Shown here in pieces: positions 1 to 28,223 of a stretch of DNA of 28,715 nt. Each line of letters begins with the position of its first letter. The stretch's first letter is position 1. The DNA is from Chiloscyllium plagiosum. Lineage: Eukaryota. Below the pieces are notes generated by a model. That model had not been told where the DNA came from, searched no databases, and worked only from the letters and a program-made list of their open reading frames with translations. A program made the translations under genes and the position numbers. The stretch is from assembly GCF_004010195.1 (NCBI RefSeq), contig NC_057755.1:7151653-7180367 (forward strand). The letters run 5' to 3'.

Positions 1-874
1 TGTCACCAGGTATTTTACTGCTTTGCTGATCTTTGCTCTGAACCTAGATAATGTTGCTGCATAAATAAATGTATTTGTGCAACAACTTAGCTTCCGCAGC
101 ATATAACCAACTTTATTGAAAATAAAAACAAACGATGAGTCATTGGCAGGATTGATTTTGGGAATGACATAATATAAAAATTCGGCAACAACGATTGACC
201 ACAGGACGATAAAGCTTCCAGATATGGTGAACAGCAAAATCACAGATTTCCTTCTGCTCACTATCTCTGGGTCTCTGCGATTCTCTCCTTTGCTGTCACC
301 CTTCAGCCTCTTCCGGACTCGGTTGGTCACTAAAATGTATCTAACTGTCAGAGCATTGAGCAACAGAATTAAAACGAATGGCAGTAAAGGAGTCAAAACT
401 GTATCAAGCCAATCTAATACCACCCACCCAGTCTCAGTAAAATAGCTTGACTTTGTTTTACAGTAAAATGATGCATTGTTCGTTATTACCCAAGGTTCAT
501 ATTGAAAATAGAAGGGGATATTTTTCAAACAGAACAGGGTGCAAGTTGTGGCGAGAACCAAAGTCGCAGTTTTCTCCGTGCAATATTTCGTTCTCAGCTT
601 CTGGCAACAAATGGTCACAAATCGGTCAAAGGAGAAAGTGACTGTGAACCAGACAGACCAGTCAGTGGCTGCACGTATTAGGACCCAGTAATGCTACACA
701 CAGGAGTGATATCAAGGAAAGACCGCGGGTAATAATAAAAGTGAAAACTCTTCAGTATAACATCAGTGATAATGACCATCAGATCAGCAGCTGCCATCAC
801 TACCAGGTATCGAGTAGTGCAAGGGGAAATACCACACTTTCCACGAGAGAGAATAACAATCGCCAGACAATTAA
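1..874 (-). pseudogene. GPCR-A coding exon 2, GPR139-like 7TM receptor, frameshifted near 684-686; runs off the window at position 1
   Basis: Acceptor ttgttttccacAG|TTAAT. Translation VNCLAIVILSRGKCG...ADLMV...ITPVCSITG reaches TAA at 680-678. Shifting one base continues as VLIRAATDWSVWFTVTFSFDRFVTICCQKL...TPLLP...NALTVR...RRKSVILLF...SCCTNTFIYAAT...VKYLVT with no further stop, colinear with GPCR-B. Confidence 0.9.
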
Positions 875-1221
875 CTGTGGAAAACAAATAGGAAAAGATG
901 CGGTGAATTACTGATCCGAAATTCCCCTTGTCTATTTCAGACAGATTTTACCAACAAAAACCAATGCATTGTTTGAGTGTAAGTGGCTGGAGTTCAGTGA
1001 GTTTGAACTTTAAGATTGTCCTCCAGCCCAATCGCCACAGAGATTATGCTCAGATGACACCCTAGTCTTGTAAATTCAAGAGAAAATTGGAGAGGCCTCA
1101 TTTGGAAAACAAAACGATCAGCACCATTGCAGCATTAGTGGCATCATCTATGGGAGAGAAAGAAAAAACGTTTTGGGATCATTGATTATTTGAGTAGAGA
1201 ATGTGAATAAGAGTGAGGTTG

Positions 1222-1306
1222 TAGTTGCATCAGCCTCCACCACTTCCTCTGGCAGCTCATTCCATATAGGCACCATCCTCTGTCCCTTTTAAAACTTGCA
1301 CCTCTC
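1222..1306 (-). mobile_element. Small CR1 LINE 3' fragment in the GPCR-A intron
   Basis: ccaccacttcctctggcagctcattccata closely matches 23111-23140 (minus-strand WNELPEEVVE motif). Confidence 0.7.
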
Positions 1307-1308
1307 AC

Positions 1309-1344
1309 ATTCACATTTCGAGTCCAGTGACCCTTCGTCAGAAC
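1309..1344 (-). ncRNA. Degenerate Penelope-type minimal hammerhead ribozyme remnant
   Basis: Minus strand gttCTGACGAa-gggtc-actg-gactc-GAAA-tgtgaa. The CUGANGA and GAAA boxes and stem II are intact, but the stem III/cleavage triplet is mutated (tgtg instead of cgtH). Confidence 0.55.
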
Positions 1345-1613
1345 TAGCTTGCATGATTGCTCTTCATATCCTGAAACCCCGTGAAACTGAAACAGGTGAC
1401 AGAATACTGAGATCAGAAAAAGCTACTGTAGCAGGGAGTCTCGGTCATTGGACAATTTTACCAGGAATGTTGCTCAGTGAATTGCTATCACTGTTTCAGT
1501 GTCTGGAGAAAGCTAATCAGTCCGCGAGCTGGAGATGTTGTTGTTCGAAAGATAAAACTAGGCAGCAGATTAGCAGCTGATGAAAACAAAGTTCTAACGT
1601 CATAATGCCATAC

Positions 1614-1680
1614 CAGGGACTCCAATAAGAGCAAGGATGGTGTAGAACACTTTCATCACGTGTTGAATTGGGTGATGCAT
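1614..1680 (-). pseudogene. GPCR-A coding exon 1 (GPR139-like class A orphan GPCR)
   Basis: Minus strand reads ATG CAT CAC ... GGA GTC CCT G|gtatgg = MHHPIQHVMKVFYTILALIGVP followed by a phase-1 GT donor at 1613-1612. Joined to the phase-1 acceptor at 876-875, it gives the TM1 motif 'LIGVP-V-NCLAIVIL'. Not captured by the ORF track. Confidence 0.88.
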
Positions 1681-1763
1681 TTTTCCATGCAAGACGATCT
1701 GTCCCTTCAGGCAGCTGACAATCTCCTTGTTTTAAACTCTGATGCATTTCCAGAGACACTGCC

Positions 1764-1768
1764 TTATA
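1764..1768 (-). promoter_or_regulatory. Candidate TATA box of GPCR-A
   Basis: TATAA on the minus strand about 85 bp upstream of the ATG at 1680. Positional evidence only. Confidence 0.3.
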
Positions 1769-1902
1769 CTGTGTCGAATCTCCATGGGGATATCAAGGTT
1801 GAAATATTGCTCAACTTTGTTGCTGTTTTTCAAAATTCTGCAAATGACGAAACTAATTACAATTACGAGTTCAATCCCATTCAGGATATTTGTTATTCAG
1901 CA

Positions 1903-2365
1903 TGTCATAATAAAATAACAAAAAGATAATGTGGAATATTCAAGCAATAACGCTCTCCTCTCAAACACCACGACCCATTGCAGAGATCACAAATTATTTC
2001 AACTGAAGCTGCTCTATTCCAGTTGTGAAAATATATTTCAGAGCTGTTCTTCTGTACTCTAGGGTGCAAGTTGCCTGCTTCATGCAAGAACACTTCTCTC
2101 AGATTGAAATATGATTCTTTTCATTTTCTGAGTGTCATAATAAAATAACAAAAAGATAATGTGGAATATTCAAGCAATAACGCTCTCCTCTCAAACACCA
2201 CGACCCCTTGCAGAGATCACAAATTATTTCAACTGAAGTTGCTCTATTCCAGTTGTGAAAATATATTTCAGAGCTGTTCTTCTGTACTCTAGGGTGCAAG
2301 TTGCTTGCTTCATGCAAGAACACTTCTCTCAGATTGAAATATGATTCTTTTCATTTTCTGAGTGT
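1903..2365. repeat. Near-perfect 230-bp tandem duplication (1903-2132, 2133-2362)
   Basis: Two copies in which I count 3 substitutions, with TGT microhomology at 1903, 2133 and 2363. The duplicated ORFs 1905-2093 and 2135-2323 in the track confirm the 230-bp offset. Confidence 0.97.
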
Positions 2366-2494
2366 GTGCATTTTTGCCGAGGTCAGGATTCGTCCTCAGT
2401 CCCTATTTCCCCAGTTTCTGGAGATAAATGAAGGACCACGTAGGGGAATTTATTGCCCTTCCTGAGGAAAGCAGACTCAGGGTGGACTTCCAAC

Positions 2495-2790
2495 AGAGGA
2501 TACATCACAGACCTCTCTTTGAATGTGACTGTCCATCCAGATACATCACTGACCTTCCTCCTCTTGTCACTTTCACTCCAGATGCATCACTGACCTCTCT
2601 GACATTGTCACAGTCGATCCGGATGCCTCGCTGACCCTCACTCTTATACTCACCACCCATTCAGATATATCAATGACCTCAGTCTTATTGACATTCTCGA
2701 TCCAGATATATCAATGAACTCGATCGTATTGTCACTCACCATCTGGATACATCACAGACATTACGCCTATTCTCGCTTTCAATCTCGATA
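2495..2790. repeat. Degenerate 41-bp tandem array, about 7 copies
   Basis: GAT(A/G)(C/T)ATCA(C/A)TGACCT-like core starts at 2499, 2540, 2581, 2622, 2664, 2705 and 2746, with a partial copy at 2787. Confidence 0.88.
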
Positions 2791-2792
2791 GA

Positions 2793-2915
2793 TGTTAACT
2801 CTGTTAACAATATTAACTCCGTTTCTTCTCTGCACAGATGCTACCAGACCTCCTGCGTTTCTGCAACACTTTATCCTTTTGCTTCAGACCTTCAGCATTC
2901 GGTATACTTTACTGA
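2793..2915 (+). mobile_element. Penelope-like element 3' terminal remnant
   Basis: gttaactc...tctctgcacagatgctaccagacctcctg...ttcagacc...cagcat is similar to the reverse complement of 3755-3840. Confidence 0.6.
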
Positions 2916-2989
2916 GTTTGGCCTTCGTCAGACCTGCTCCTCTGCTTGCGGGACTGTCCTATGAATAGAGATTTGGAAATTTAGACTTT

Positions 2990-3420
2990 TATTGTACAGA
3001 ATTTTAAACAATGAGAGATGATCTCATTGAAACGTGCTAAACACTTTAATGGACAGACAGCATGGATATAATTCGTACATTTCCTCTGTTTGGAGATTTG
3101 AGAATCGGGGTGGGGCAATTAATTAAATTGTGGGGAATCCCACTTGAACCTCAGATAGGGACAATTTTCTTCATTATAATCAGAAGTTTGTGAACGATTG
3201 GAATTCACAAGTACAGCGTGTTGTGGAAGCTCAGTATTTGAGTATGCTTCAGAAAGAGATGCATTGACTTCTGATTCCGAGTGGGATGCAGAGTTGTCGA
3301 AAATGTTTCCGTAAAAAGGTATTGTTGTTATCCATCAGGCATGGCCCTATTAAATGGCGCAACTGACTGGAAGGTCTGAATTCTCATTCAATTTATGATA
3401 TTCATTTCTTGATCCTATAT
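2990..3420 (+). mobile_element. Old degenerate CR1 3' end
   Basis: atgagagatgatctcattgaaacg (RGDLIE-like) and ttttcttc...gtttgtgaacgattggaattc (FF.QRVV..WN-like), with many stops. Confidence 0.7.
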
Positions 3421-3744
3421 AATGCACTTCTAATTCTGAGACCATACTATCTTATCCTGGACTCACCAGCCAAAGGAATCACCTGACCCACATCCCCCTT
3501 CGAAACATTTTGTAAAATTCAATGAGATTGCCACTCATTCTTTCAAATCCTGGAGTGTATAGGTTCTGTTTCCTCAAACTGCACGTAGTCTCCATATTAG
3601 CTTCCTAGTCAATTTCTCATGACTTTTGTTTCTTTTTGATGGAACTGTTATATCATTATTTCGCGCACCTTTACGGCGTTTTAATGATTTTAATTTACAA
3701 CAAATGAATGATTTGTAATCTAAATTGAAGAATGAACCAGAGTA

Positions 3745-4365
3745 ACACAGAAACAACTGTAATGCTGGAAATCCGAAACAGAAACAGAAACTTCGGGAAA
3801 AACCCAGCAGGTCTGGAAGAATCTGTGGAGAGAAAGCAGTTAGTTTTCTTCAGTACTGATTTTAGCCAATAAAGGCGGCATTTAAGCTGTTAGGAGGGGA
3901 GGGTGTGGGAGGGCAGATGAATGAAAAATTGCTGCAGATGGAGACCACGGAGGGAGTAAAAATTAGTCAGGCAAACGGATAGATGGTGGTGAACCGGGCA
4001 GAAAGTAAGAATGATAACGCAGGCCTTTAGTGGGTGGAAGTTGTTTGATTGTGATAAAGCAGCCCGTGTGGTGACAAGCTCTGGGGTATGGGATGTGAGC
4101 AGAAAACATCAAAAAGGTGCTCAGGCCCTAAATATATTGCCTTTGGCCCTGAGTCATGAAGTCTGAAGGTTTCCCAAGCAGAAAGCGGGATGCTGTTCTT
4201 CCATTTTGCACCGGAACATTGCAGCAAGCCCAAGGCGGAGATACTGGCGAAAGAGCAAGTGATATATGGAAATAGTAGGCAACTGGAAGGAAAAAGTCAT
4301 TTCTGTGGACAGAACTGAGGTGTTCCGCAAAACCAGAGCTCAGTCTGTCTTTTGTTTCCCTCAAT
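3745..4365 (-). mobile_element. Degenerate Penelope-like retroelement 3' part (GIY-YIG endonuclease remnant plus terminal region)
   Basis: ORF 4128-4364 RETKDRLSSGFAEHLSSVHRND..PVA matches the PLE GIY-YIG pattern GET.R.L..RF.EH. 'MGLLQC...' follows, and the terminal region resembles 18793-18930. Confidence 0.8.
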
Positions 4366-4444
4366 AACGAGCGATATGTGCAGCAAATAAAGTGGACTCG
4401 ATTAAATGGAAGTTCAGGAAAAGAACGAACTACTTACTGACTGA

Positions 4445-4605
4445 GCAGTGGACTGGGTGGGCTCAGTTAGTCAGCCCAAAATTCAGGGTGACACCAACAA
4501 CATGGGTTCAATTTTGGCCCCAGCTGAAGTTCCCATGTAAGAATCTCCCCTTGTCTGAGGCATGCTGGCCCTCAGATCAAGTCACGATCAGGTGCCCTCT
4601 CTTAT
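4445..4605 (+). mobile_element. Degenerate tRNA-derived SINE fragment
   Basis: A-box-like gggctcagttag and B-box-like gggttcaatt. A related head occurs near 11500-11570. Confidence 0.45.
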
Positions 4606-4614
4606 GACGACAGG

Positions 4615-5186
4615 AATTTGGCAGTTTTTAATGAACAAACTCGCCAATTCCTTCAGTGAATGTTTCTGAGCTTGGTCCCAAGCAGCTCCGTCGCATAGAA
4701 CTCTGTTCTCTCCGGTTTGTTCCACAGGACGCACACTGTGACACACATCGACTGTGTCTGGACAACCAATTGGTGAAAGACGTTCTTCAGTCCGCTCAAA
4801 ACTTGTCAGTTTTGCAGAGCAAGGAGTTGGCCTCGATAGAGTGTTGTAGGCTGACACCTTCCAACGTTCAGGAATACGTGCTGCCGGATGAACTAAAACT
4901 TGGGGCAGCTGCTGCCAAGGTCCCGTGGGGAAAGGTCACTGTCTAAATGATTTCTTCCAAAATATTCTGAGGACCTGTTATATTTGGACATTTCCTCATG
5001 GCTTCAATGACAGTGTATATGTATTCGTGTCCTGTGCAATAAAGATTCTGTTTTAATAAGTGATTAGCATCGAAAATGAGGAATGACATAATAGTAGTGT
5101 ACTCTGTACAATAGCTTAAGCAAGCTACTTTGTATTGTAGCTGAGATGATTTGTGAATAAAGTATACCTTTGCACTAAAAATAAAA
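4615..5186 (+). mobile_element. Tx1/L1-clade LINE 3' end (ORF2 C-terminus, 3' UTR, poly(A) signal)
   Basis: VKDVLQSAQNLSVLQSKELASIECCRL...VQEYVL..LKLGAAAAKVPWGKVTV* resembles the C-terminus of fish/shark Tx1-type ORF2. AATAAA near 5156 is followed by an A-rich tail at 5177-5186. Confidence 0.7.
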
Positions 5187-5711
5187 TTTTGACATATTCT
5201 GAACTCAGTTGATTAATTTCCATTACACTTCTCAGACTAATGTTATTTCATTTCAGTTTTTTTAAGGTTTCAATGGGTATTCCATCAGGGTGATTTTTTT
5301 TAGGAGTTTGGTGTCCTTTTCAATTTTTTTCTTCTCTGGGGATTACTGTCAAACTGACCAATTGTAATTTTAACGTCACGTTGCCTTGTACTGGACGTTC
5401 CTGCAGAAGGTATGCCTCATGTCATTTGACCCTGGGACCTCAAAATGACTTGAAGGGCCTGGCTCCCAGCATTGGCAACAGAACAGAGAAAGTCTAAAGC
5501 TTCAAATGTCTCAGTTGTGAGAATAGATGGGGCAGTGTGGGATCATAGATTTTGAAGCAATATATAAATTGCATGTAAGTTGCAGTCAGTAACTTCATGT
5601 TACAATGTTACAATATTCAATCAGTAAACTGCCCTCACACAGGGGAGCAATGTCACTGGGTGAATGTGTAGATTGGCCAGGAATAGGGATTTGAGTACCT
5701 TCATAAAAAAC

Positions 5712-5930
5712 AAACAACAAAGAACAAAGAACCTTCCAGCACAGGAACAGGCCCTTTGGCCCTCCAAGGCTATGCTGATCGAGATCCTCTATCTAAACCT
5801 TCTGCCTATTTTGTAAGGATCTGTATTCCTTTGGTCTCTACCCATTCATGTATCTGATAGATACATCTTAAAGAACGCTATCTTTCCCGCCCCTACCACT
5901 TCCGCTGGCAATGCATTCCAGGCACTCACC
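5712..5930 (-). mobile_element. CR1 3' end fragment
   Basis: aacaaagaacaaagaac tail, cacaggaacaggcccttt 3' UTR motif, and minus-strand WNALP (gcaatgcattcca). Confidence 0.8.
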
Positions 5931-6205
5931 TGGAGGCGAGACAGGAAATAGCTGGGGCCCTGACAGATATCTTTGTTGCATCAGGAATTAATGCTGGGGT
6001 CACTGCTGTTTGTGATATACTTAAATGACCTGGAAGAGAACATTGTTGGTCTGATCAGTAAGTTTGCAGATAACACGAAGATTGGTTGAATAGCGGAAAG
6101 CATAGGGGACTGTTAAAGAATACAGGACAATATAGATAGACTGGAGAGTTGGGCGCAGACGTGGCAGATGAAGCTCAATCCACGCAAATTTGAGGTGATG
6201 CATTG
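5931..6205 (+). mobile_element. Internally deleted CR1 RT fragment
   Basis: LLFVIYLNDL..SKFADNTKIG*..WA..WQMKLN..K, with stops. Confidence 0.85.
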
Positions 6206-6235
6206 GTCAATGTAGGGAAAATCAAAATCTCTGAA

Positions 6236-6945
6236 AGACCTTGAAGTGCAGGTTCATAGCTCCTTGAAAGTGGAGTCACAGGTAGATAGGATAGTGAAGA
6301 AGGCGTTTGGTATGCTTTCCTTTATTGGTCAGAGTATTGAGTACAGGAGTTGGGAGGTCATGTTGTGGTTGTACAGGACACTGGTTAGGCCACTGTTGGA
6401 ATATTGCATGCAATTCTGGTTTCCTTCCTATCGGAAAGATGTTGTGAAACTTGAAAGAGTTCAGAAAAGATTTACAAGGATGTTGTCAGAGTTGGAAGAT
6501 TTGAGCTATATGGAGAGGCTGAACAGGCTGGGGCTGTTTTCCCTGAAGTGTCGAAGGTTGAGGGGTGACCTTATAGAGGTTTACAAAATTATGAGGGGCA
6601 TGGATAGGATAAATAGGCAAAGTGTTTTCCCTGGGGTTGGGGAGTCCAGAACTGGAGGGCATAGGTTGAGGGTGAGAGGGGAAAGATATAAAAGAGACCT
6701 CAGGGGCAACGTTTTCACGCAGAGCGTGGTACATGTATGGAATGAGCTGCCAGACAATGTGGTGGAGGCTGGTACAATTACAACATTTAAGAGGCATTTG
6801 GATGGGTATATGAATAGAAAGCGTTTGGAGGGATATGGGCCGGGTGCTGGCAGGTGGGACTAGATTGGGTTGGGATATCTGGTCGGCGTGGACAGGTTGG
6901 ACCGAAGGATCTGTTTCTATGCTGTACATCTCTATGATTCTATGA
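6236..6945 (+). mobile_element. 5'-truncated CR1 LINE (ORF2 C-terminus and 3' tail)
   Basis: ORF 6246-6863 LYRTLVRPLLEYC..LERVQKRFTRM..RLRGDLIEVYK..WNELP. Tail tctatgattctatga. Confidence 0.95.
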
Positions 6946-7660
6946 CCACCACCCTGTTGCTGTGATATCTTTCTATGATCTCACTACATATTTGAACATC
7001 TATCTCACGCTCGCTGTTGAGAGGCCTGTAGTGCAATCGCAACATTGTTTCTGAGTTCTGCCCATATTTCCCCACTGCACGAGTCTTCTATCGTGCCCTC
7101 CTTTGACACATTTGTTATATCTTCTTTGACCAGTATTCCAACTCCTGTAGCCATTTTATCTCCCTCTCTGTCGTGCTGAAGCATCGATACCCTGGGGTAT
7201 TTAATTGCCAATCATGCCCTTCCCTCAACGAAGTCTCAGTAATAGCAATAACAGTAGGCGGCACGGTGGCACAGTGGTTAGCACTGTTGCCTCACAGCGC
7301 CAGACACCCGGGTTCAATTCCCGCCTCAGGCGACTGACTGTGTGGAGTTTGCACGTTCTCCCCGTGTCTGCGTGGGTTTCCTCCGGGTGCTCCGGTTTCC
7401 TCCCATAGGTCAGGTGAATTGGCCATGCTAAATTGCCCGTAGTGTTAGGTAAGGGTAAATGTAGGGGTATGGGTGGGTTGCGCTTCGGCGGGTCAGTGTG
7501 GACTTGTTGGGCTGAAGGGCCTGTTTCCACACTGTAATGTAATCTTATCTAATCTAATCATACTCCCCGGCACTAATAACATCATACTCCCAGGCACTAA
7601 TCCAAGCCTTAAGTTCATCTGCCTTACCTACTATACTTCTTGAATTAAAATAAATGCACC
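6946..7660 (-). mobile_element. Degenerate CR1 endonuclease fragment, interrupted by a SINE
   Basis: Minus strand KADELKAWISAWEYD-VIAITET spans the SINE insertion, followed by GVGILVKE..EIWAELRN. Confidence 0.8.
7257..7557 (+). mobile_element. HE1-type V-SINE (elasmobranch tRNA-derived SINE)
   Basis: A box TGGCACAGTGG, B box GGTTCAATTCC, V-domain ctgtgtggagtttgcacgttctccccgtgtctgcgtgggttt, CR1-like 3' end gaagggcctgtttcc, and an (AATCT)n tail. Confidence 0.93.
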
Positions 7661-8038
7661 TCAGACCACCAGTCTTTTCACACTCATCCTTTGGTTCCTG
7701 CCTACTCTTCCCCTTCCTCACGCTGACTTCATTATCTAGTTACTTACAGGTTTTAGTTATTACCTACTTCCTGTCCACCAACCTCCTCATTTGATTCCCT
7801 ATCCAACTGCCACATTAGTTTAAACAGAGTTAGCAATATCACATCTCAACGTATTTCAATTTTACTGTCCAGTGAGTTTATTTCACCAGAGAGCACATAA
7901 CACACCTCTAAAGTTTGCTACATTACTTTTTCTTGTGTATTATATGATATAAAAGAAAAAAGAGCAGAGGTCATTAAATGAACACCTGTTTGATCACACT
8001 CTGTTACGCTGTCCAATCTGAAACAAACATAAACCATC

Positions 8039-10142
8039 ATGGGACACTTTAACTTCCCCAACATTGACTGGAAATGCTATAACTCTAGTAGGTCGGATGG
8101 ATCAGTTTTTCTCCAATGTGTGCAGGAGCGTTTTCTGGCCCAGTAGGTCGAAGGGCCAACAAGAAGGGAGACCACACTGGATCTGGTACTTGGTAATGAT
8201 GGTATTTGATTTAGAGGTAGATGAGCACTTTGGAGAAAGTGACCATAATTCAGTTACGTTTAGTTTAGCGATGGAAAGGGTTTGGTACATGCCACAGGGC
8301 AAGAGATATCGATGGGACAAGGGCAATTATAATGTGATTGGGCAAGACTTAGGATGCATAGAATGGGGTAGCAAAATGCAGGGGATGGGACAATAGAAAT
8401 TTGGAGCTGGTTTAATGAACAGATATTGCATGTCCTTAATAGGTATGTCCCTGTCAGGCAGGGAGGAAGTGATAAGGGAACCGTGGTATATGACAGAAAT
8501 TGCATCGCTCATTAAGCAGAAGGAGATTTATGTGACGATGAGACGAGATGGTTCAGGTGAGGCAATGGATTGTTCCGGAAGAGCTAGGAAGGATTTAAAG
8601 AGAGAACTAAGAAGAGCAAAGGGATGACATGAACAGTCTTTAGCAAATAGAATAAAGGAGAACCCTAAAGCTTTCTATAGGTGTGTGAGGAATAAAAGGA
8701 TGAATAGGGTAGGAATAGGGCCAGACAAAGACAGAAGTGGGAAGTTGAGTGTGGACCCTGTGGAGATCGGAGAGGTGCTAAACGAATATTCCTCATCGGT
8801 TTTCACTCAGGAAAAGGAGAATATTGTAGAGGAGAAGAATGAGGTACGAGATATTAGACGAGAAAGCATCGAGGTCAATAAGGAAGAGGTGTTATCAATT
8901 CTTGAAGGAGTGAAAGTAGACAAGTCCCCTGGGCAGGATGGGATTTATCTGAGGATGCTATGGGAAGCGAGTGAGGAGGAGTTGGAGCTTTTGGCTTTGA
9001 TCTTTGAGTCACCATTGTCCAATGGTTTAGTGCCAGAGGACTGGAGCATTGCAAATGTTATGCCCTTGATCAAGAGGGGCAGCAGAGATGACCCAGGCAA
9101 TTGTAGACCAGTGAGCCTTAATTCTGCTGTAGGAAAAGTTTTGGGAAGGATGATAAGGGATTGGATTTATACTTATCTAGCAAGCAACAATTTGATTGCA
9201 GATAGTCAACATGGATTCTCAAGGACAGGTCATGTCTCACAAACATGACATTAAAGTCGGTGGAGTAGTGGACAGTGTGGAAAGATATTGCAGGTTACAG
9301 GGTTACTTGGATAAACTGCAGAATTGGGCTGAGAGGTGGCAAATGGAGTTCAATGCAGGTAAATGTGAGATGCTTCACATTGGGAAGAATAACGGGGAGG
9401 CAAAATACTGGCACAATGGAAAGATTCTTGATAATGTGGATGTGCAGAGGGATCTTGGGGTCCATGTATATAGATCCCAGAAAGTTGCCACCCACGTTTA
9501 TCGTGCTGTTAAGAAGGCGTATGGTGTGTTAGGTTTAATCGTTAAATGGATTGAGTTCCGGAGCCGCAATGTCATGCTACAACTGTACAAAACACTAGTG
9601 CGGCCACACTTGGAATATCTTGTACAATTCTGGTCGTCCCAATACAGGAAGGATGTGGAAGCATTGGAAAAGGTGCAGAGGAGATTTACCAGGATGTTGC
9701 CTGGTCTGGAGGGAAGGTTTTATGAGGAAAGACTGAGAGATTTGGGTCTGTTCTTATTGCAAAGAAGAAGGCTAAGAGAAGATTTGATAGAGACATACAA
9801 GATGATCAGAGGATTAGATCGGTAGACAGTGAAATCCTTTTTCCTAGGATGATGATGTCAGCTTGTACGAAAGGGCATAACTACAAATTGAGGGGTGATA
9901 GATTTCAGACAGATGTCAGAGACAGGTTCTTTACTCAGAGAGTGGTAAGGGCGAGGAATGCCCTACCTGCCAATGTAGTTAACTCAGCTACATTACTGAG
10001 ATTTAAATAATCCTTGGATAAGCACATGGATGATGATGGGATAATGTAAGGGAACGGGTTTAGGTTAGTTCACAGGTCGGAACAACATCGTGGGCCGAAG
10101 GGCTTGTTCTGCGTTGTATTGTTCTATATTTTATGTTCTATT
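8039..10142 (+). mobile_element. CR1 LINE, 5'-truncated and mutated, with an internal deletion of the RT core near 9244
   Basis: MGHFNFPNIDW, DKSPGQDG, RPVSLNS, SQHGF, then a direct jump to D.KVGG, LYKTLVRPHLEY, and a (TGTTCTA)-type tail. Confidence 0.95.
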
Positions 10143-10829
10143 TTCCTGTATTCTGTACATGAACCAATGTCCTACATGTTCTGCCTACGCCCCTTTCATC
10201 TAAAGAGCATTTTTTTTTTGCCAGAATGTTCAGTTTTGAGACTTTATCGGTTCCAGTAAAGGAATTGGACCAGGAATCTCTATTTATTCAATATTCCAAT
10301 CCAGGACCAAAGGGGCACAGGTTGAATAGATCAGAGACAAAAGGTGTTTTTGCAGAAAGGTGAATACTCTAAAACAGAAATTCTAAATTGGATAAAGACT
10401 TGTTTGAATGAATAACCTGCGATGGAGAAATGGCAGATATTTAAGAAACAGATTTAAAAAAATGTTTTCAGTGACCAGTAATGACCGTTTGTGCCGAACA
10501 TGTGAGACACAGAGAAGGCCAATCATTGCTGAAAGAATGGCCAATGGAATATAACGGAAGTGGCGGCCAAGGACACAGAACGGGACAGTGCTACTCACTT
10601 CATCAGTCCTTGGAATTGAGTGACTAGACTCACTACGCCTGCTGAGATCTCACTGAACGTGTAAAGTTGGTCTTTGTAAAGGTTTGGTGATCCTGTTCCG
10701 AGTGCATTCGAATTGTGGACCAAATACGAATCTCATGTGGGTCTTTATAATCAGCACATCTCCTCCACCAGCGATGTTCAGCATGGCTCCTTAAACAGCA
10801 CGTTTCAAACACACCATCATTTCAATTTA

Positions 10830-11075
10830 GTAGGACAAAGACAGCAGATGAATGGAAACCACTTCCCCACCCCCCTCTCACCATCCTGACTTGGAAATAA
10901 ATCACCTTGTGGAATTTCCCTCAATAACAACATTGTGAATTCAATTGCAACAAATAGACTGCAGCCGTTCAAGTAGGCAGCTCACCACCACCTTGTCAAA
11001 GGCATTTAGGGACAGGCAATAAATACTTGACCAGCCAGTCATGCCGATGTCCCATGACTGAATTGTAAAAGAAAA
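10830..11075 (+). mobile_element. Old LINE (CR1/L2 group) 3' tail
   Basis: catcctgacttggaaat...gactgcagccgttcaag...ctcacca...caataaat is shared with 24445-24690. Confidence 0.6.
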
Positions 11076-11649
11076 AAGTTTCACACACTCAAATTTCGGG
11101 CCTGAGAGGGAGCTGCAGTACTTGAAATATAGAGTGAGTGTCTTCTCTGAGAATGTCAACACTTAGGGAAAGTTGAATTGGCAGAGGGTCAGTGCTGAGG
11201 GAGCACCACATGGTGAGATGGTCAACACTTGGGGAAAGCTGTATATTGTTCATCTTGAAACAAAAGTTCCTTTCCCCTTCAATGCTTAAATCGATCCTGC
11301 TCATCCAAAGTTTCAGGCCATGCATTTCAGATCTCAGCTGTTCACTGTGTGAACAAAATTATATTTCTGTTTTCATTTTAATGGACTAAAATGATATCCT
11401 CCATGACAGCATAGAGGCTGCACTTTGGAATGATAGAGATAGGTTGCATAGGCTTAGACCGTCACATGACCAATTACAAACCCAAGTGGACTTTGCATGG
11501 GGAGCTAGCTCAGTGCACTCGACATCTGGTTGATCAGAGTGTGGTAGAATGGCGGACAAAGATCAAGCTCCAACTTGAGAGCAGATGCCTTTGGTTACAT
11601 ATTGCAGCAGGCAAGGATTGAAATCAGCTGCGAATTGTTTGAAGAATTC

Positions 11650-11990
11650 GCTCCTTCTCAGTTTCTATTTCCATCTCTTCACTTCTTTATCTTTGATCCT
11701 GTTGGAGATGTGTGTGTGTGTGTGTGTATTTCCCGCGCTCTGTGTCTTGATCTTATTATCCCTTTCATTTCGCTCTTATGCTTTACCAGTCAATTTTTGT
11801 TTCCATCTATATCTCATTCTTTATGTTTGTCTCCCTTTCACTCTCAATCTCGATCTTTCTCTTTCTATCTCACTCCTCCAAACCTTTCTATTTTTATCCC
11901 CCTCTTATTGACTCCATGTCACTTGCCCGCTCTATGACTCACTCTCTCATTGTCTCTATTTCTCTATCATGCTCCAACACCTCCCCAATC
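11650..11990. repeat. CT-rich low-complexity tract with a (TG)n microsatellite at about 11709-11727
   Basis: Direct inspection. Confidence 0.85.
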
Positions 11991-13131
11991 CACCCCGGTC
12001 TCTATACTTGAAATGATGTCATCGCATTTTGATTGCATTGCTGCTAAACCTGTTTGGCAAATTGTTCTTTTTTTGTTTTTCTGTATTCGATTACTGATCA
12101 CACAGAAATCTTGAATAAAATATGGATAATCGGAGGACGACCTAAATGAGCAGAATGTTGTTTTCTGGTATTGATGATTTAAATAGGGATATGGAGCAGA
12201 GTATTTCCTGTTTGCCCATCAGTAACATATCTAATTCCTTGTAATTTCAGTTAGTGGTGGCAGGTATTGTTACTTTGTCGAATGGCTTTTATTTAAAATG
12301 GCCCAGGTGTTTCACTCTGAAATTGAGGTGTGATAAGCAGAGTGACCCTGACCCACAGTTAACTCCCTCCAACTTTCCTTGCTGTCTATCCTCAATGATC
12401 AGAAAGATGGCGTTGATGATACTCATTTCCACATGGTTTGCAGCATTGCAGCAACAAGTCCTCCCACTGCACACTTCTATCCAACAATCCCATCTGATTG
12501 AGGCAACATTGCTTTCTACAAATTCCATATCATTCTGTTCAGCAAATTCAGACTCAATTACAACGCCAAGACTATAAAGATAAACTAAGTGGTTCTCACC
12601 AGTGAGTCTGCACAATCATAGCAATACGATTTAAGTTATCTCTGTGAATTCCCCTCTGATACAGGCCAACGTACCGTTTGACCACCTCACTGACTGTTCC
12701 GCCAGCACACTAGCTTAAAAAACTGACTCCTGCTCATATGCTTGAAAATCGAGAAATGGAAGCCCAGTTTGCCCATTCTTTACTCAAAAAGAAATCTTCC
12801 TCCACAGCGATCCTCCTCGCGATTCCCTGCTGCACTCCTTCAATAACTAGTCTATTCTTCCTCAGGCATGAAGACCAAAACTGGTCTCTCGATATAATTG
12901 TAACATGCCCCATTCCCTCCTGTCCTCAAGATGAAGTCTTGATTGCCAAAGTACCATTCGCTTTCCTAATAGCATGCTGCACTGACATGCTAGCTTCCAG
13001 TGACTCGGGAACAAGACAGTGACATCCCTTTGGCAATCAAAACTTCTCAACCCCTCTATCTGCATCAAACATTCTTTTGGTTTGTGTTTCCTTTAACGAA
13101 GAAAATCGATAACAATACTGTTGCCCCTGCG

Positions 13132-13276
13132 GTATTGTCAAGATTCCTGAACGTTTTTCATTACGTGTGCATTGCATTTTGTTTATTATTATGCCGTTAT
13201 AATATGCAAATTGAAGTTTCAGTTCCTTTCTACAACTGTGACTCCTGCTTGTTACTTTCTCCTGTGTGTTTCTGAA
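13132..13276 (+). repeat. Left arm of a ~145-bp inverted repeat
   Basis: Reverse complement of 14487-14631 with few mismatches. The track shows the shared FRNTQEKVT.RSHSCRKELKL.FAYYNGIIINKMQCT peptide on opposite strands. Confidence 0.95.
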
Positions 13277-13294
13277 TCTCTGAAGAACAGCCCA

Positions 13295-13472
13295 ACCAGA
13301 CTCACTCCCCAACCTATCCATCTAACCTGCACGCTTTTGTACTGGAGAGGAAACCTGCACAGGTGCCCAGAGATCGGATAAAATTCACATCCGCAGTCAA
13401 CCAAGGCTGGAATTGAACCAAGGCTCCAAGCATTGTGAGTTGGCACTGGTTACCACTGAGCTGCTGCACGAT
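13295..13472 (-). mobile_element. Degenerate HE1-type SINE
   Basis: Minus-strand B box GGTTCAATTCC, ctcagtggtaacc A-box region, and gtgcaggttagatggat body. Confidence 0.75.
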
Positions 13473-14486
13473 CCCACATTTGGTTATGTTACATATGCCA
13501 CTTTATTGTTCAGGCATAGAGATTGTCCAGTCCCGTTTCAGCATGTTTTCTATGTCTTTCACAAGACACATTCCAAAAGAACTTGCTCTCATCAGTAAAT
13601 TTGAAAATATAATGCTCAAGGCTTCACTGAAACTGTCCAGTTGTTTGAATAAATTGAATTGTGCTGGGAACAACAACACAATGCGATGTTGAAAAGTTAT
13701 GCTTTATTTTGCTTGTTTTATGATTACAAACTGAAAATGTCTCTTAAAAGTAATATTCATCAATGACCCTCCAGTAGTGGAATTTTCAAACAATCTCTTG
13801 TATTACCAAAACAAAGGGACAACATGAAACTCTGGACATTGTTAAGCATTGTAAGTTTGTATGTTGTAACATTTACTGAAAATTTGAGAAGAAAAAAGAG
13901 GAAAATATCGTGGAATACAGCGCGCATAAAATGTAATTGAAATTCATGTTACTTGAAATTGGTAACAAACCTGAGAATACTCTGGAATAGAGAGACCAAC
14001 TTCTTCCTCATATCGTATCCCACCGTGGCTGAAGATCTCTCTGCAGACTGTGGCATCCGATCATCAATGAGAACGGAGAAGGGGAATAGAGATTTGGTGA
14101 TGATGAAGTGGGGTAGAGATGATGCACAATGTTTGTGGGGTAAAGTCTTGATAATGTTAACATGTTGCCAGTTATAAAGGTCCAGATCATTCCTTCAACT
14201 GTTGCAGGTCAATCTCGAAAACCTATCTGGAGGTAGTAGTGCCAAACTGTATAAGATGTAAACGATGGTGAACATGCTCCAGTGCTGCCCAGTAAAGAGA
14301 TCTGTACTGTACGAGCTCAAAACTGAGCTATTCTACTGAACAGAGAAACTGTACAATATTTAGATGGTGATGCGGGTGCTGTTTGTTTATTTTTCTGAGC
14401 AGAGATCAATGGATGTAAATGGTTCAAATGAGATGCTCAGATATGTTGAGATAAGTGATCATCCATTGTGCGTTGTACTTAATGTG

Positions 14487-14631
14487 TTCAGAAACACACA
14501 GGAGAAAGTTACAAACAGGAGTCACAGTTGTAGAAAGGAACTGAAACTTCATTTTGCATATTATAACGGCATAATAATAAACAAAATGCAATGCACAGGT
14601 AATGAAAAACGTTCAGAAATATTGACAATAC
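14487..14631 (-). repeat. Right arm of the ~145-bp inverted repeat
   Basis: See 13132-13276. Confidence 0.95.
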
Positions 14632-14677
14632 GGTAGATTAAAAAATGGATGCCGGAAGATGGTATACAACAATGTAG

Positions 14678-15309
14678 TGTCACAAAACTGGTCGTTTTTT
14701 TTTCCCAACGCTCAAGGTTACTCTGTCCTTGATTTTTCTCAGAGGAGTAATAAACCAGGCCGCGCTGCGATCAGACTGGTTTGGTACAGAGATGAGAAGG
14801 ATTTTGAGAGGACTTTTGCTTACGTGTAAATAGATGTGACTTCAGGCCAAAGTGGTCATGTTTTAAAAGTGACCTGTGGAGTGAAGGGGGAATGGCCAGC
14901 TCTCCAGCTGAGCAATTGAGTTCAGTCCAGAACTGGTTGGGAGTTCGACAGTGAGCTGTGTGGAAAATCTTTCTTCTCTCCCTTCTACCTTCAACCTGAA
15001 AACATCTGATTTTTTTTTGTACTGCATTTTAAAGGGTGGTATGCTTTTAGGGACTGTTGTGGATATTCAGACAGCATACTTAAATCTAGTTTGGATAGAT
15101 TGAGTTCTGTACGGGGTTTTTATTCTGTTCTTCGTGTTTCATTGTGTAATTTTGTGAATAATTTTTTTTTATCTGTTTTAAACCTGGTAGTCAAAGTCGT
15201 TAACTTAATCCGAGTAATTTTCACTGCACACTTACCGAAACAAATTGCTAAGGTACTGTCTGGGCTGCCTTCTTCCGAATGTTTTGAGTAGCCTGGTCAA
15301 TCCAGAACA
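14678..15309. mobile_element. Probable solo LTR (632 bp)
   Basis: Ends TGT...ACA, flanked by gtag / gtcg (4-bp TSD with one mismatch), no coding potential. Resembles shark Gypsy-type LTRs as I recall them. Confidence 0.6.
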
Positions 15310-15581
15310 GTCGACTAACGAACAATTTGCTTTTAGGAAGTAATGCCAGAGAGTGAAAGTGATCGTGGAAATCATTTCTGAATATTGAATGCTATTGGCG
15401 CAACTGCTGATAATACTAATCAAATCAGGTCCCAGAGTAACAGCCGTTTTGGATGATGTTCAGGTTAATCTTTCCATTTGTTTGACGTGGTAGTCGTCAC
15501 TGAAGACATTCCCACGAGACTGCCACTGTGTTTTCAGCACAAGAACATGAACTTATTTACAAGAAAATGCAACATTGTAGA

Positions 15582-15587
15582 TTTATT
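15582..15587 (-). promoter_or_regulatory. Candidate poly(A) signal of GPCR-B
   Basis: AATAAA on the minus strand about 280 bp past the stop codon. Confidence 0.35.
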
Positions 15588-15866
15588 AGAAATCGGAAAA
15601 GTCTTAAAAACGAAACACAAAACCAAATTCTCATTAACATCCTTTACAGATATTAAATCTCAGTGAAGTATCATTCTAATTTCAATTTGTCAAATTTTTG
15701 CAGAACTGATTATTTCCAATTCTAGTCGCTGACATGTTCTTTTCCAATTTTGAGGAGATGGGCTGCTTTTCAAATGATGTAGCCAAGGAAATTCCACAAA
15801 CTCCTAACCTGGACATCCTGTTGTATGGCGGCAAATACGTCTTCAATGAAGGTCAGACCGCTATGC

Positions 15867-16771
15867 CTACTTGCATAATTTATAATTTCGAGTAAATGGA
15901 TATTTTACTCCGTTGATTAACTCCTCTCTGAATTTAGTTTGCGTTAGAGCGTATATGCAGGTATTAGTGCATGAATTCAGAAGCCGAAGCATGAATCCAA
16001 TTTCTTGAAAGACAAATACTGGATCATTTAAAGTTTTGTCTTCATAATTATAGTTTTTTCCTTGCCACGTTACAGAGCACACAACATATGCGATCCACAA
16101 CAGTATAAAGTTAGCAGACAATGCAAAGAGCAAGATGATGGATTTTCTCCGATTTGCCACCTCTGGATCAACATTATTCTGAGCATTTCCGTGGATCTGG
16201 AGACGACCACGAATGCGATTAGCTGTTATAATATTCCTGACCGTTAGAGCATTGAATATCAAAATCAATATAATTGGAAGCAAAGGTGTGATTATACTGT
16301 CAATCCATTCATACACTTTCCAAAATAATGATGTATAAAAGTCTGATATGATGATGCAAAACCATGGTACATTGTCAATAACAAATGCAGGAGTAAGGAC
16401 AAAATACCAAGAAATTGAGCGTAAGCAACTGACTGCACTGACAATTACTAAAACCACAAGTGCAGTTCTCTTATTGCAATATCTTGCTCTTAGCTTCTGA
16501 CAGCAAATTGCTACAAATCGATCAAATGTGAAAGCAACTGTGAACCAAACTGAACAATCCAGGGCTGCAAGAAACATAGCGACTCTCACGGCACATACAG
16601 GAGTGATGGACAAGAACGTAACTGGGAAATAAAGATTTATAATTCGGTGCAGTATGACATTGAGAATGACAAGAAGTAGATCTGCTGTAGTCATTGCCAA
16701 CAAATAGCGAGTGATGCATTCTGAGAGCCCACACTTGCCTCGATTCAAGATTGCAATTGCCACAAAATTAA
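15867..16771 (-). CDS. GPCR-B main coding exon, GPR139-like class A orphan GPCR (intact; exon 1 not found in the window)
   Basis: Strong acceptor tttttttatttttcttgcAG|TTAAT at 16773-16772, the same position and phase as in GPCR-A. Uninterrupted 7TM ORF with TM2 ADL, the TM3 Cys, FDRFVAIC, the ECL2 Cys, TM5 PLLP, TM6 FILLW, TM7 NSCTNTCIY and helix-8 KFR. The track's first ~15 residues are intronic. Confidence 0.93.
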
Positions 16772-18888
16772 CTGCAAGAAAAATAAAAAAAGTAAATGTC
16801 TGCACGACCAGAGTCACAGCAAAAATGACATCAGCTTAAAATGTCTGCTAAACAATACCAATTTCCTCAGCTTCATATATTATAACAATTAGACGATACA
16901 TGGTGAAAAGATTCAATGCAATTGTTGACTCCAGCAAACCAGAATGAAATAAAGACATGTTGTGAACTAGGCAAACAGAATATGAAATATCTGTAAATAA
17001 ATGAGGACCAAAAACTACAATGAATGAAATATTTTAATGCAAGTCTGTCATATTGATAGAGTCACAGACAGGTTTAATAGACTTTTCATGTTTTTCAAAC
17101 TGGCAATGGAAAAAAAAATCAACATGAAATTAAGGACATGGTATTTTACATCAATGCACACCATCAGGAACATAGTACATGAGCAGCCACGATAATACAT
17201 ATTTTATTAAAGCGAACTGAGATGGTTCAGTGTGAGGTTAAGATGTTTAGATGGGCAGTGTCATAAACTAGTTTGGAAATGAGTGGGAACCAGAACTACA
17301 TATTTGAGAGGGGAGGTAGTTGTAGATGGGGCAGTGACAGGATGTAGTGAATCTATCGGCAAAATTTCTCACATGATGAAACAAGGAGATTGGTTAATGT
17401 TTGTCTGCTTTAACGCAAGGTGTGTCAGAAATAAAAGTGATGAGCTTAGAGTATGGATCATTACTTGGGACTATGATGTTGTGGCCATAACGTAGACGTG
17501 GGTTTCACAGGGGCAGGAATGGTTCCTAGATGTTCCTGGGTTTAGAACGTTTAAAAGTAATAGGGAGGGTGGAAAAAGAGGAGGGAGTGTAGCATTTGCT
17601 GGTCAGATAATGCATCACAGCTCCAGAAATGAATGTTGTCGAGGAAGGTTTGTCTACTGAGTCAGTATGGGTGGAAGTTAGGAACAAAAAGGGAGCAGCC
17701 ACGTTATTGGGGGTTTTCTAAAGACCCCCAACTAGCAGTAGGGAGATTGAAGAACACATAGGCCTGTAGATTCTGGTTAAAAAGCAGATGTTGCAGTCTT
17801 GTTGTTATGGGTGATTTCAACTTTCCCAATATTGACTGCAACCTCCTTAGTGCAGATGGTTTGGGGGGAGTTGTGTTTGTCAGGTGTGTTCAGGAGGGTT
17901 TCCTTACTCAGTATGTAGACAGGCCGACGAGGAGAGAGGCCATTTTGGACTTGGTGCTCGGCACTGAGCCAGGACAGGTGTCAGATCTCATGATGGGAGA
18001 ACATTTTGGTGACAGTAACCACAACTGCTTCACATTTACTGCAGCCTTGGAGAAGGAAAGGAATAGTTACCAAGGGTAGATATTTAAATTAGGAAAAGGA
18101 AATTATGACGCTATCAGACAGGAGTTGGGAAGTACAGATTGGGAGCAATTGTTCCACCGAAAGGGTACAGCAGACATGTGGAGACTGTTTAAGGAACAGT
18201 TGTTGCGAATGATGAATAAATTTTGTTCCTCTGAGATGGATAAGAAGGGGCAAGATTAAGGAGCCTTGGATGATGAGAACAGAGGGGTTTCTCGTCTGAA
18301 GAAAGAGGGCAGCTTGCAAGGTGGAGAAAACAAGGATGAAGCACAGCTTCTGAGGTTTACAAGTTGGCTAGAAAGGAGCTCAGAAATGGACTGAGGAGAG
18401 ACAGGAGGGGGCACGAAAAAGGCTTGGCAGGAAGGATTAAGGAGAACCCAAAGACATTTTACTCATATGCGAGGAATAAGAGAATAATCAGGGAGAAGGT
18501 AGGGCCAGTCAGGGATAGCAGAGGGAACTTGTGCATGAAGTCTGAGCAGATCGGTGAAGCCCTCAATGAGTTTGTTGCTTTGGCTTTCACTGAGGAAAGG
18601 GGCAGTGTTATGAATGAGAACTTTGAGGAGCTGGGAAACAGGCTTGAATGGGTCAAGATCGATGAAGCTGATGTGTTGGAACATTTAGCAAACATTAAGA
18701 TTGATAAGCCCCCAGGGCCAGATGACATTTATCTGAGGATGCTCTGAGAAGCGAGAAAGGAGGTTTCTAAGCCGTTGGTGAAGATCTGTGCTGGAGGAGA
18801 AAGTGAGGTCTGCAGATGCTGGAGATCAAAGTTGAAACTTTATTGCTGGAACAGCACAGCAGGTCAGGCAGCATCCAGGGAACAGGAG

Positions 18889-18924
18889 ATTCGACGTTTC
18901 GGGCACATGCCCTTCTTCAGGAAT
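18889..18924 (-). ncRNA. Minimal type I hammerhead ribozyme (Penelope-associated)
   Basis: Minus strand AUUC-CUGAAGA-A-GGGC-AUGU-GCCC-GAAA-CG-UC^-GAAU: stem I AUUC/GAAU, perfect stem II, palindromic ACGU in place of stem III, and a GUC cleavage triplet ending at 18893. Confidence 0.82.
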
Positions 18925-19041
18925 GAGCAGAGAGTGTTCAGCAGGAGAAGATAAAAGGTAGGGAGGAGGGACTTGGAGGAGGGGCGTTGGAAATGTGATA
19001 GGTGGAAAGAGGTCAAGGTGAGGGTGATAGGTCGGAGGAGA

Positions 19042-19211
19042 CTAACTATCCGTGATCCCAGTCTGGTTCACTGTGATCCTGACCTAATTAAATGTGATCC
19101 CAGTCTGCTTCACCGTGATCCTGACCTAACTATCCGTGATCCCAGTCTGGTTCACTGTGATCCTGACCTAATTAAATGTGATCCCAGTCTGCTTCACCGT
19201 GATCCTGACCT
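19042..19211. repeat. Hierarchical minisatellite (21-bp monomers, 42-bp dimer, exact 84-bp repeat)
   Basis: GTGATCC recurs every 21 bp. Monomers: gtgatcccagtctggttcact / gtgatcctgacctaattaaat / gtgatcccagtctgcttcacc / gtgatcctgacctaactatcc. Confidence 0.95.
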
Positions 19212-19576
19212 NNNNNNNNNNNNNNNNNNNNNNNNNNNNNNNNNNNNNNNNNNNNNNNNNNNNNNNNNNNNNNNNNNNNNNNNNNNNNNNNNNNNNNNNN
19301 NNNNNNNNNNNNNNNNNNNNNNNNNNNNNNNNNNNNNNNNNNNNNNNNNNNNNNNNNNNNNNNNNNNNNNNNNNNNNNNNNNNNNNNNNNNNNNNNNNNN
19401 NNNNNNNNNNNNNNNNNNNNNNNNNNNNNNNNNNNNNNNNNNNNNNNNNNNNNNNNNNNNNNNNNNNNNNNNNNNNNNNNNNNNNNNNNNNNNNNNNNNN
19501 NNNNNNNNNNNNNNNNNNNNNNNNNNNNNNNNNNNNNNNNNNNNNNNNNNNNNNNNNNNNNNNNNNNNNNNNNNNN
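19212..19576. other. Assembly gap (365 N)
   Basis: Run of N. Confidence 1.
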
Positions 19577-22466: not shown

Positions 22467-22926
22467 TGTTCAAGTACATAGATGCCTCAAAGTTCCCACC
22501 CAAGTGGATCGGTTTGTTGAGAAAGCATATGGTGTTTTGGCTTTCATTAACAGTGGAATCAAATTTAAGAGCTGTGCAGTTTTGCTGCAGCTCTACAAGA
22601 CCTTAGTGAGACCACACTTGGAATATTGTGTCCAGATCTGGTCGCCCTACTACAGGATAGATGCGGAGGCTTTGGAAAGGATGCTGCCTGGACTGGAGGG
22701 CTTGTCTTATGAAGGAAGGTTGAATAAACACGGACTTTTCTCTCTGTAGAGAAGGAGGAAGAGAGGTGACTTGATCAAGGTATACAAGGTAATAAGATGC
22801 ATGGATAGAGTCAATAGCTAGAGACATTTCCCCAGGACAGACTTGACTGGCAAGAGGGGTCATAATTTTAAAATATTAGGAGGAGGGTACAGAGGGGACG
22901 TCAGAGGTAGGTTCTTTATGTAGAGT

Positions 22927-24690: not shown

Positions 24691-24776
24691 AAGAAGGAGT
24701 GGCCGGAATTCAAACTTCAGTTTGGATACATATATTACTGTTAAGATAACTTGAGTACAGAAGGTTAAATTTTGTG

Positions 24777-26566: not shown

Positions 26567-26590
26567 TTTGCTTAATAAAATAAATAAAAA

Positions 26591-27250: not shown

Positions 27251-27375
27251 CAGTGGTGTCAGAAGTTCCGTTCATTATGAGAGCTGGCTCTGAGGGAACT
27301 GGATCAGTGTCAAAAAAAAGGGAGTGTCCCTGTTCAATTCTATTTTCATCAAACTGCTCCCTGACGTGAAACACC

Positions 27376-28222: not shown

Positions 28223-28223
28223 A

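Follow-up and report, generated by a model that had tools for sequence, protein, structure and literature searches.

Two genes for G-protein-coupled receptors (GPCRs) of the rhodopsin class (class A) lie on the minus strand of a 28,715-nucleotide stretch of the Chiloscyllium plagiosum genome (contig NC_057755.1, positions 7,151,653 to 7,180,367; hereafter the window). Judged from sequence, both belong to a much larger chondrichthyan repertoire that evolves in the manner of chemoreceptors, and their family is very probably one that diversifies receptor specificity. The genes are referred to as LEFT (positions 1-1680; Pfam 7tm_1 match, E 1.8e-13) and RIGHT (exon 2 at positions 15867-16771; 7tm_1 match, E 1.6e-17). 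An earlier reading of the letters of the window, the original prediction, had described them as diverged GPR139-like orphan receptors from a cluster with a conserved cytoplasmic face and a variable ligand pocket.

The size of the family was examined through protein searches with both genes. Of the 4473 candidates for the RIGHT protein, 2407 reached E ≤ 0.001, as did 1138 of the 1427 for the LEFT protein. The best 120 of each search were analyzed, giving 239 distinct proteins. Names were available for 237 of these, which came from 20 shark and ray species and were nearly all labeled 'probable GPR139'. Among the listed proteins, the closest relatives of the window genes were from carpet sharks (82% and 78%). 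The horn shark carried at least 101 distinct 90% clusters, 95 of which had both core motifs and at least 290 amino acids; this count is a lower bound, and a few clusters could be unplaced haplotypes. Its first 96 members were distributed over 33 contigs, with 26 and 17 on two of them. The best listed matches of LEFT and RIGHT, their nearest relatives, were located on one 13.97-Mb zebra-shark contig (7 of the 239 proteins), which supports the view that the window is a slice of a receptor cluster. Turnover was evident in the terminal sister pairs, 39 of the 62 scored pairs being from the same species. Together with the horn-shark count, this result agrees with the predicted large, clustered birth-and-death family and leaves no room for a family of only a handful of members.

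Residue, pocket, and sister-pair analyses used 188 of the 239 proteins (290-345 amino acids), in which 52 family columns were at least 95% invariant. A family-like first exon was present in 98 of the 188 database models, and the short N-termini of those 98 contained no glycosylation sequons. Annotation of the clusters was unreliable. Gene models P0012, P0018, P0021, P0025, P0305, and P0323 combine parts of neighboring family members or attach them to unrelated genes, and some members are called 'vasopressin V2 receptor-like' or 'capa receptor-like'. Logan proteins P0075, P0087, and P0432 were considered as transcript evidence and rejected for their intron-like N-termini.

Since paralogous GPCRs often combine a conserved inner face with a variable outer one, a matched control was used, namely the 22 orthologues of an amphibian sister gene. 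The 29 pocket positions followed a class A consensus and were assigned with the help of motif anchors and the helices of the model. Weighted entropy over the 188 shark and ray proteins was 2.15 bits in the pocket, 1.45 bits at other outer transmembrane (TM) sites (P 0.0016), and 0.82 bits in the inner TM region, so that an excess of extracellular divergence is present. The amphibian orthologues gave 0.11, 0.53, and 0.51 bits, respectively. At 75-85% overall identity, pocket identity was 0.52 in 869 same-species shark pairs and 0.98 in 118 amphibian pairs, while the inner TM identity of the shark pairs stayed at 0.88. With this control, the predicted combination of a conserved cytoplasmic face and a variable pocket was upheld. 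A 15-site pocket set from the GPR139 structure paper gave the same picture (0.46 versus 0.97). Among disjoint pairs of 65-85% identity, the pocket fell below the global value in 65 of 73 shark pairs and in 0 of 10 amphibian pairs. Pocket sites also changed faster than neighboring non-pocket sites, with charge classes swapping at positions 2.61, 3.28, 3.32, and 3.33.

Sister pairs showed how pocket change is distributed. In same-species pairs with support of at least 0.9, pocket identity was 0.79 versus 0.88 for the rest of the protein (lower in 14 of 19, P 0.001), and in cross-species pairs of the same support it was 0.88 versus 0.84 (lower in 2 of 11); the P values for sister and disjoint pairs are indicative only, the pairs being related by descent. 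Over all scored sister pairs, the pocket was lower in 31 of 39 same-species and 10 of 23 cross-species pairs. The LEFT subfamily kept 10-17 of 28 pocket sites among close carpet-shark relatives, with 74-79% identity elsewhere. The RIGHT subfamily kept 13-24 of 29 sites, and 20-24 in five of six relatives across sharks.

The window pair itself matched the original prediction closely. Two minus-strand 7TM genes share their acceptor position and phase: both acceptors read AG/TT AAT in phase 1, fall in the same codon in TM1, and are 15.9 kb apart. The hand count of 90 identical residues over the first 180 aligned columns was exactly confirmed, and overall identity was 139 of 290. This identity is concentrated on the cytoplasmic side, as claimed, with 62 of 96 residues in the inner TM halves and 21 of 43 in the intracellular loops, versus 8 of 28 in the pocket, 5 of 24 in extracellular loop 2 (ECL2), and 1 of 11 in ECL3, where the noted indel was also found. 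Synonymous sites are saturated between the two genes (pS, the proportion of differing synonymous sites, 0.75), and pairwise ratios of nonsynonymous to synonymous change (dN/dS) are uninformative for that reason. A family hidden Markov model (HMM) detected no third receptor fragment in the window (next match, E 0.9). A recent tandem origin of the pair was rejected on the saturated synonymous sites and on the grouping of each gene with ray genes. The acceptor common to the two genes was already present in the ancestor of the entire clade and is therefore no sign of recent duplication. The claim of a tandem cluster stands for the family, which is clustered, but not for LEFT and RIGHT as a recently duplicated pair.

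The age and origin of the family were addressed with a deep tree of 53 rows out of 94 selected; GPR139 and GPR142 were not among the rows. LEFT grouped with skate and sevengill-shark genes (support 100/100), and RIGHT grouped with different skate and sevengill genes (99.4/100). Both subfamilies consequently predate the split of sharks and rays. A chimaera protein was nested among shark proteins (94.2/95), from which it follows that the expansion began before the holocephalan split; the proposed restriction to elasmobranchs was therefore too narrow. When 1.84 billion representatives were searched with the family profile, 142 matched at E ≤ 1e-30, and all 19 of the family-like representatives looked up were chondrichthyan. 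Beyond the family, a salamander gene came first, followed by proteins of coelacanth, teleost, and bichir and by unnamed ones. Searching with the salamander protein returned 25 proteins, comprising 20 amphibian clusters (each with a different species name, all three amphibian orders covered), 1 sturgeon, and 4 shark or skate proteins; this search was word-limited and says nothing on absence from amniotes or teleosts. The chondrichthyan family formed one clade at 90.8/75, which rose to 97.3/93 once five long-branched rows were removed. The amphibian/sturgeon gene was its sister at only 45.3/89, and the two together joined a coelacanth/teleost group at 99.9/100. The salamander, coelacanth, and bichir genes each have alternative models that diverge at the TM1 point of the window intron, which makes this intron ancestral. 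GPR139 presumably carries an intron at the matching position, just before N1.50.

For the amphibian/sturgeon gene (P0334, P0386, P0401-P0420), each species represented in the 20 amphibian clusters, and the sturgeon, yielded a single copy. This conserved orphan GPCR has a near-invariant pocket, K6.51, and Asn at 2.50, and it is labeled 'probable GPR139' yet distinct from GPR139. This one-copy sister gene, in Xenopus and axolotl, is a tractable handle on the ancestral ligand.

GPR139 is the nearest solved structure to the family, but the window genes are not orthologues of GPR139 or GPR142. The family profile matched GPR139 best (71.4 bits versus 56.9 for the next receptor), followed by chemokine and peptide receptors at low scores, and two outgroup proteins likewise had GPR139 as best solved match (53 versus 40 and 70 versus 44 bits). 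RIGHT itself matched GPR139 at 22 bits (E 9e-4). Human and zebrafish GPR139, by comparison, are 70% identical (PMC7318219). The action of L-Trp and L-Phe on GPR139 needs F3.33, H5.43, W6.48, and N7.38 (PMC5430874), and R6.51 anchors the amino-acid carboxylate (PMC8807744). Of the GPR139 ligand residues, the family keeps W6.48 only (185 of 188). At F3.33, H5.43, W6.48, and N7.38/7.39, RIGHT has L, S, W, and F, and LEFT has R, T, W, and Y. Only 1 of 188 shark and ray proteins has R or K at 6.51, as against all 22 from amphibians and 8 of the 9 remaining outgroup proteins; RIGHT has Tyr there and LEFT has Val. Loss of this anchor suggests that sharks left the class of aromatic-ended peptide ligands. 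The low score to GPR139, the lost anchor, and the horn-shark copy number support the suggestion that these are not true GPR139 orthologues, and the many copies do not fit one-to-one orthology with a single conserved gene. Comparison of the RIGHT model by fold gave 50 listed rows that were tied (Z 23.2-24.5), with peptide receptors on top and GPR139 absent among the 50; such a comparison does not separate class A families.

The features of the two genes are collected in Table 1. RIGHT showed no deviation across the 52 near-invariant family columns, and AlphaFold confidently models it as a 7TM bundle in which ECL2 forms a hairpin (mean pLDDT, the predicted local distance difference test score, 89.2). 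A search of sequencing runs with RIGHT exon 2 listed no RNA run, which carries no weight in either direction. Over the 11.9 kb of 16772-28715, no first exon for RIGHT was detected by donor scan, HMM, ungapped scan with the N-termini of six relatives, or DNA alignment. The best candidate, near 17804, was rejected with a score of 28 of about 112 and a position inside a long interspersed nuclear element (LINE). A gap of 365 N bases interrupts the upstream region at 19212-19576, and the first exon may lie beyond the window or inside this gap, or may have been lost.

Table 1. Features of the two receptor genes in the window
Feature	Positions	Strand	Description
LEFT exon 1	1614-1680	-	very short N-terminus and outer TM1; 22 codons plus 1 base; phase-1 GT donor
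LEFT intron	875-1613	-	739 nt; small CR1-type fragment inside at 1218-1283
LEFT exon 2	1-874	-	inner TM1 to helix 8; 3' end cut by window edge
LEFT frameshift site	684-686	-	G run with one base missing; frame shifts in outer TM3
TATA-like hexamer	1763-1768	-	candidate promoter; upstream of the LEFT start codon by about 85 nt
RIGHT exon 2	15867-16771	-	frame intact, inner TM1 to stop codon
RIGHT intron/upstream region	16772-28715	-	LINE fragments for the most part

The very short N-terminus claimed for LEFT (GPCR-A of the original prediction) is encoded in its exon 1, which matched the first 22 residues of a whale-shark sister with an ungapped score of 81 of 111 (exon-1 HMM, E 4e-5). Exon 2 extends to base 1, where the window edge cuts it some 8 codons before the end reached by the 322-amino-acid sister proteins. 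At the G run, the sister proteins mostly have Gly. Apart from the frameshift, LEFT shows no decay, with 1 conservative change among the 52 near-invariant columns and a branch length of 0.14 versus 0.14-0.23 for its sisters. For this reason, the frameshift may mark a null allele that arose very recently, or else the assembly has slipped here. In DNA contigs from three runs (1-1880, 90% likeness), no indel row occurred at 684-686; no near-identical contig spanning these bases was listed, and paralogue contigs swamp the stretch. The disrupted copy of the original prediction is thus present in the assembly, but it may be a slip.

In the same three DNA runs, contig depth was raised at 1702-1764 and 1324-1386. 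The former, in the 5' leader of LEFT, suggests a leader common to paralogues, and the latter, in the intron, may be a repeat. Over the TM3 motif (568-693), summed contig depth was 115,000-212,000 versus 10-25 on unique flanks, a depth that is no copy number and only hints that similar copies are numerous. A 230-nt tandem duplication at 1903-2365 (98% identical), immediately upstream of the candidate LEFT promoter region, may be a recent duplication or an assembly artifact.

Arrays and mobile elements make up other parts of the window. A 41-nt array is located upstream of LEFT at 2499-2759, and a 21/42-nt array at 19042-19211, upstream of RIGHT exon 2, adjoins the N gap; the likeness between the two arrays is marginal, as 25 of 500 shuffles reach the same score. 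The N gap also cuts a minus-strand reverse-transcriptase frame at 19634-20439 (PF00078, E 2.9e-8), which we take to be Penelope-like. Many LINE fragments occur in both orientations (6185-6930, 8020-10150, 17760-18790, 20490-25500, 27400-27720, and 28230-28300), presumably of the CR1 type from their translations. An inverted pair of 168-nt segments (13127-13294 and 14469-14636; 90% complementary, 1174 nt apart) possibly represents a DNA transposon of non-autonomous type or a short repeat that is present twice. Rfam gave no matches in the window.

We propose that this chondrichthyan class A repertoire would have grown by tandem duplication from one ancestral jawed-vertebrate gene, a member of the GPR139/GPR142-related orphan clade. 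After duplication, the half facing the G protein is kept while orthosteric pocket residues change, and once a specificity is set, orthologues tend to retain the pocket. The receptors would read many different small ligands, whose diversity we infer, into one common signaling pathway, with Gq and Gi/o coupling expected from GPR139. Their use would most likely be the sensing of water-borne or surface chemicals by the nose, by taste or solitary chemosensory cells, or by skin afferents. GPR139 structures were solved with Gq-type and Gi partners (PMC8807744), and such coupling would suit the catshark nose, which is filled with Go/TRPC2 microvillous neurons, olfactory neurons of cartilaginous fishes being Go/TRPC2-positive (PMC10116579). 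Cartilaginous fishes have a mean of 43.8 complete olfactory receptor genes (PMC10869828) despite large olfactory organs. We consider the chances of this explanation as a whole, chemosensory role included, to be evenly balanced.

Several observations weigh against it. Single-cell polyA RNA (about 2 in 100 of one run) gave 289 reads against LEFT, nearly all on a LINE fragment; this portion of the run held no spliced LEFT read and about five paralogue-like TM3-motif reads in both orientations. The 50 genes most specific to 'brain & olfactory epithelium' in the catshark contain no GPCR in the available portion of PMC11979771, which is weak evidence because known olfactory receptors are also missing from the list. 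The shark nose can already be accounted for by the known repertoire of V2Rs (PMC10116579). The sample of 188 proteins is biased to relatives of LEFT and RIGHT and to the horn shark (96 of 239), and the pocket positions were consensus sites mapped by motif anchors rather than measured on coordinates. Protein sequences do not suffice to prove positive selection, and fast pocket change could reflect relaxed constraint instead. A variable pocket also marks immune and nociceptor families.

The last point leads to immune or tissue surveillance, in which the receptors would act in granulocytes, mast-like cells, barrier epithelium, or nociceptors on microbial, parasite, or damage-derived ligands, both peptides and metabolites, in the manner of formyl-peptide receptors (FPRs) or MRGPRs. 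We regard this role as the next most likely, though less probable than not. The very fast pocket change of the LEFT subfamily (10-17 of 28 sites kept) is what an arms race would produce, cartilaginous fishes reportedly lack MAS1 and its relatives, which leaves that niche open (PMC8455134), and chemokine and peptide receptors follow GPR139 at low scores in the structural matches of the profile. However, cross-species sister pairs keep the pocket (0.88 versus 0.84), which fits stable ligands better than continual escape. One nurse-shark spleen single-cell supplement (4,750 characters) does not mention the family, which is almost no evidence.

Two further explanations were considered. The genes could be endogenous peptide or amino-acid receptors (neuroendocrine, gut, or reproductive), multiplied yet reading host ligands like GPR139/GPR142 and their protostome relatives. 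GPR139 is indeed the nearest characterized relative (71 bits versus 57), its clade presumably goes back to a receptor whose peptide ligands had aromatic residues at their ends (PMC8557429), and some subfamilies, that of RIGHT included, keep most pocket sites (20-24 of 29 in five of six relatives). The near-complete loss of R/K6.51 in sharks and rays (present in 1 of 188, but in every one of the 22 amphibian proteins and in 8 of 9 further outgroup proteins) makes this improbable. At least a hundred charge-swapped pockets would, moreover, require a matching host ligand repertoire, for which we know of no evidence. Equally hard to credit is neutral bloat, the spread of a duplication-prone two-exon cassette in a repeat-rich genome with copies mostly weakly constrained or silent. 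The frameshift in LEFT, the lack of a visible first exon in RIGHT, the many LINE pieces at the locus, and the family-like first exon in only 98 of 188 models, a hint of thin transcript support, would all be expected of it. Neutral decay would not target the pocket, though (inner TM identity 0.88 versus pocket 0.52), and the family retains 52 columns that are at least 95% invariant in subfamilies older than the shark/ray split.

If the chemosensory explanation is right, its consequences extend beyond the window. Cartilaginous fishes present a puzzle, being called poor in GPCRs and olfactory receptor genes despite their olfactory anatomy; the whale-shark paper, for example, describes a relative paucity of GPCRs (PMC8455134). 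One horn-shark genome nevertheless holds at least 101 members of a single family under the 'probable GPR139' label, and these genes are present in RefSeq under that misleading name. We tentatively suggest, with somewhat less than even confidence, that sharks, rays, and chimaeras have a fifth, unrecognized vertebrate chemoreceptor family, derived from a GPR139-related orphan that is single in amphibians and numbering a hundred to perhaps a thousand genes per genome, more than the known olfactory families together. In that case, the impression of a 'tiny shark olfactory repertoire' would be an artifact of searching known families alone. A sensory role would change the account of vertebrate chemoreceptor evolution, and an immune role would mean that the oldest lineage to possess adaptive immunity also has a new repertoire of innate receptors. 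We found no description of the expansion in the open-access literature, most subscription papers being outside the search. Neither 'receptor 139' nor 'GPR139' occurs in the 24 supplement files of PMC8455134 (one file partial), which list one GPR142 orthogroup of 70 proteins from 35 taxa. GPR139 terms occur in none of the 8 supplement files of PMC13188829, and the available portion of the vertebrate-wide chemoreceptor survey (PMC10869828) does not mention GPR139.

Among known systems, human GPR139 and GPR142 (PDB 7VUG-7VUJ, 9M42) resemble the family in W6.48, in N5.58 replacing Tyr, and in having no Pro at 7.50, and GPR139 is a two-exon gene like those of the window family (PMC7318219). Each is a single conserved copy, whereas the shark family has at least 101 clusters in the horn shark. 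The C3.25-C45.50 pair is present in the shark family (188 of 188 and 186 of 188), whereas GPR139 aligned to RIGHT has Asp at 3.25. The bony-vertebrate orphans near GPR139/142, found in amphibians and sturgeon (P0334-P0420), in coelacanth and teleost (P0344, P0350), and in anchovy and bichir (P0373, P0398), are the nearest non-shark profile matches and share the disulfide and the TM1 intron position. They differ in low copy number, a near-invariant pocket, and retention of R/K6.51. The tentative name 'GPR210A/B' was given by Rinne et al. 2019 to orphans of bony fishes that adjoin GPR139/142 (PMC6504862). Our orphans are probably these clades, a label to be taken as a lead; sharks are not mentioned in the portion of that text searched or in its one supplement (PMC6504862).

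Established chemoreceptor families resemble the shark family in mode of evolution but differ in ancestry. The olfactory receptors, TAARs, V1R/ORA receptors, and T2Rs are likewise large clustered repertoires with lineage-specific turnover and short N-termini, in which the pocket varies among paralogues and is kept among orthologues. Their coding regions are intronless, whereas a phase-1 intron in TM1 splits that of the shark family. All 72 shark-family members tested match 7tm_1, and none of the 72 matches the olfactory, V1R, or TAS2R Pfam models; eight gave weak Srx matches and one a GPR_Gpa2_C match. The MRGPRs and FPRs are lineage-specific class A expansions at the border of sensory and immune function. 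They belong to an unrelated class A branch, and their likeness to the shark family is by analogy. The feature-space neighbors of RIGHT include PF10324 Srw in 17-74% of members, and no match to Srw was found among the 72 members at E ≤ 0.001. Nematode Srw chemoreceptors, like certain other expansions in invertebrates, derive from the clade of FMRFamide/myosuppressin-type peptide receptors. The nematode expansion and that of the shark family are independent, the latter having taken place in a vertebrate.

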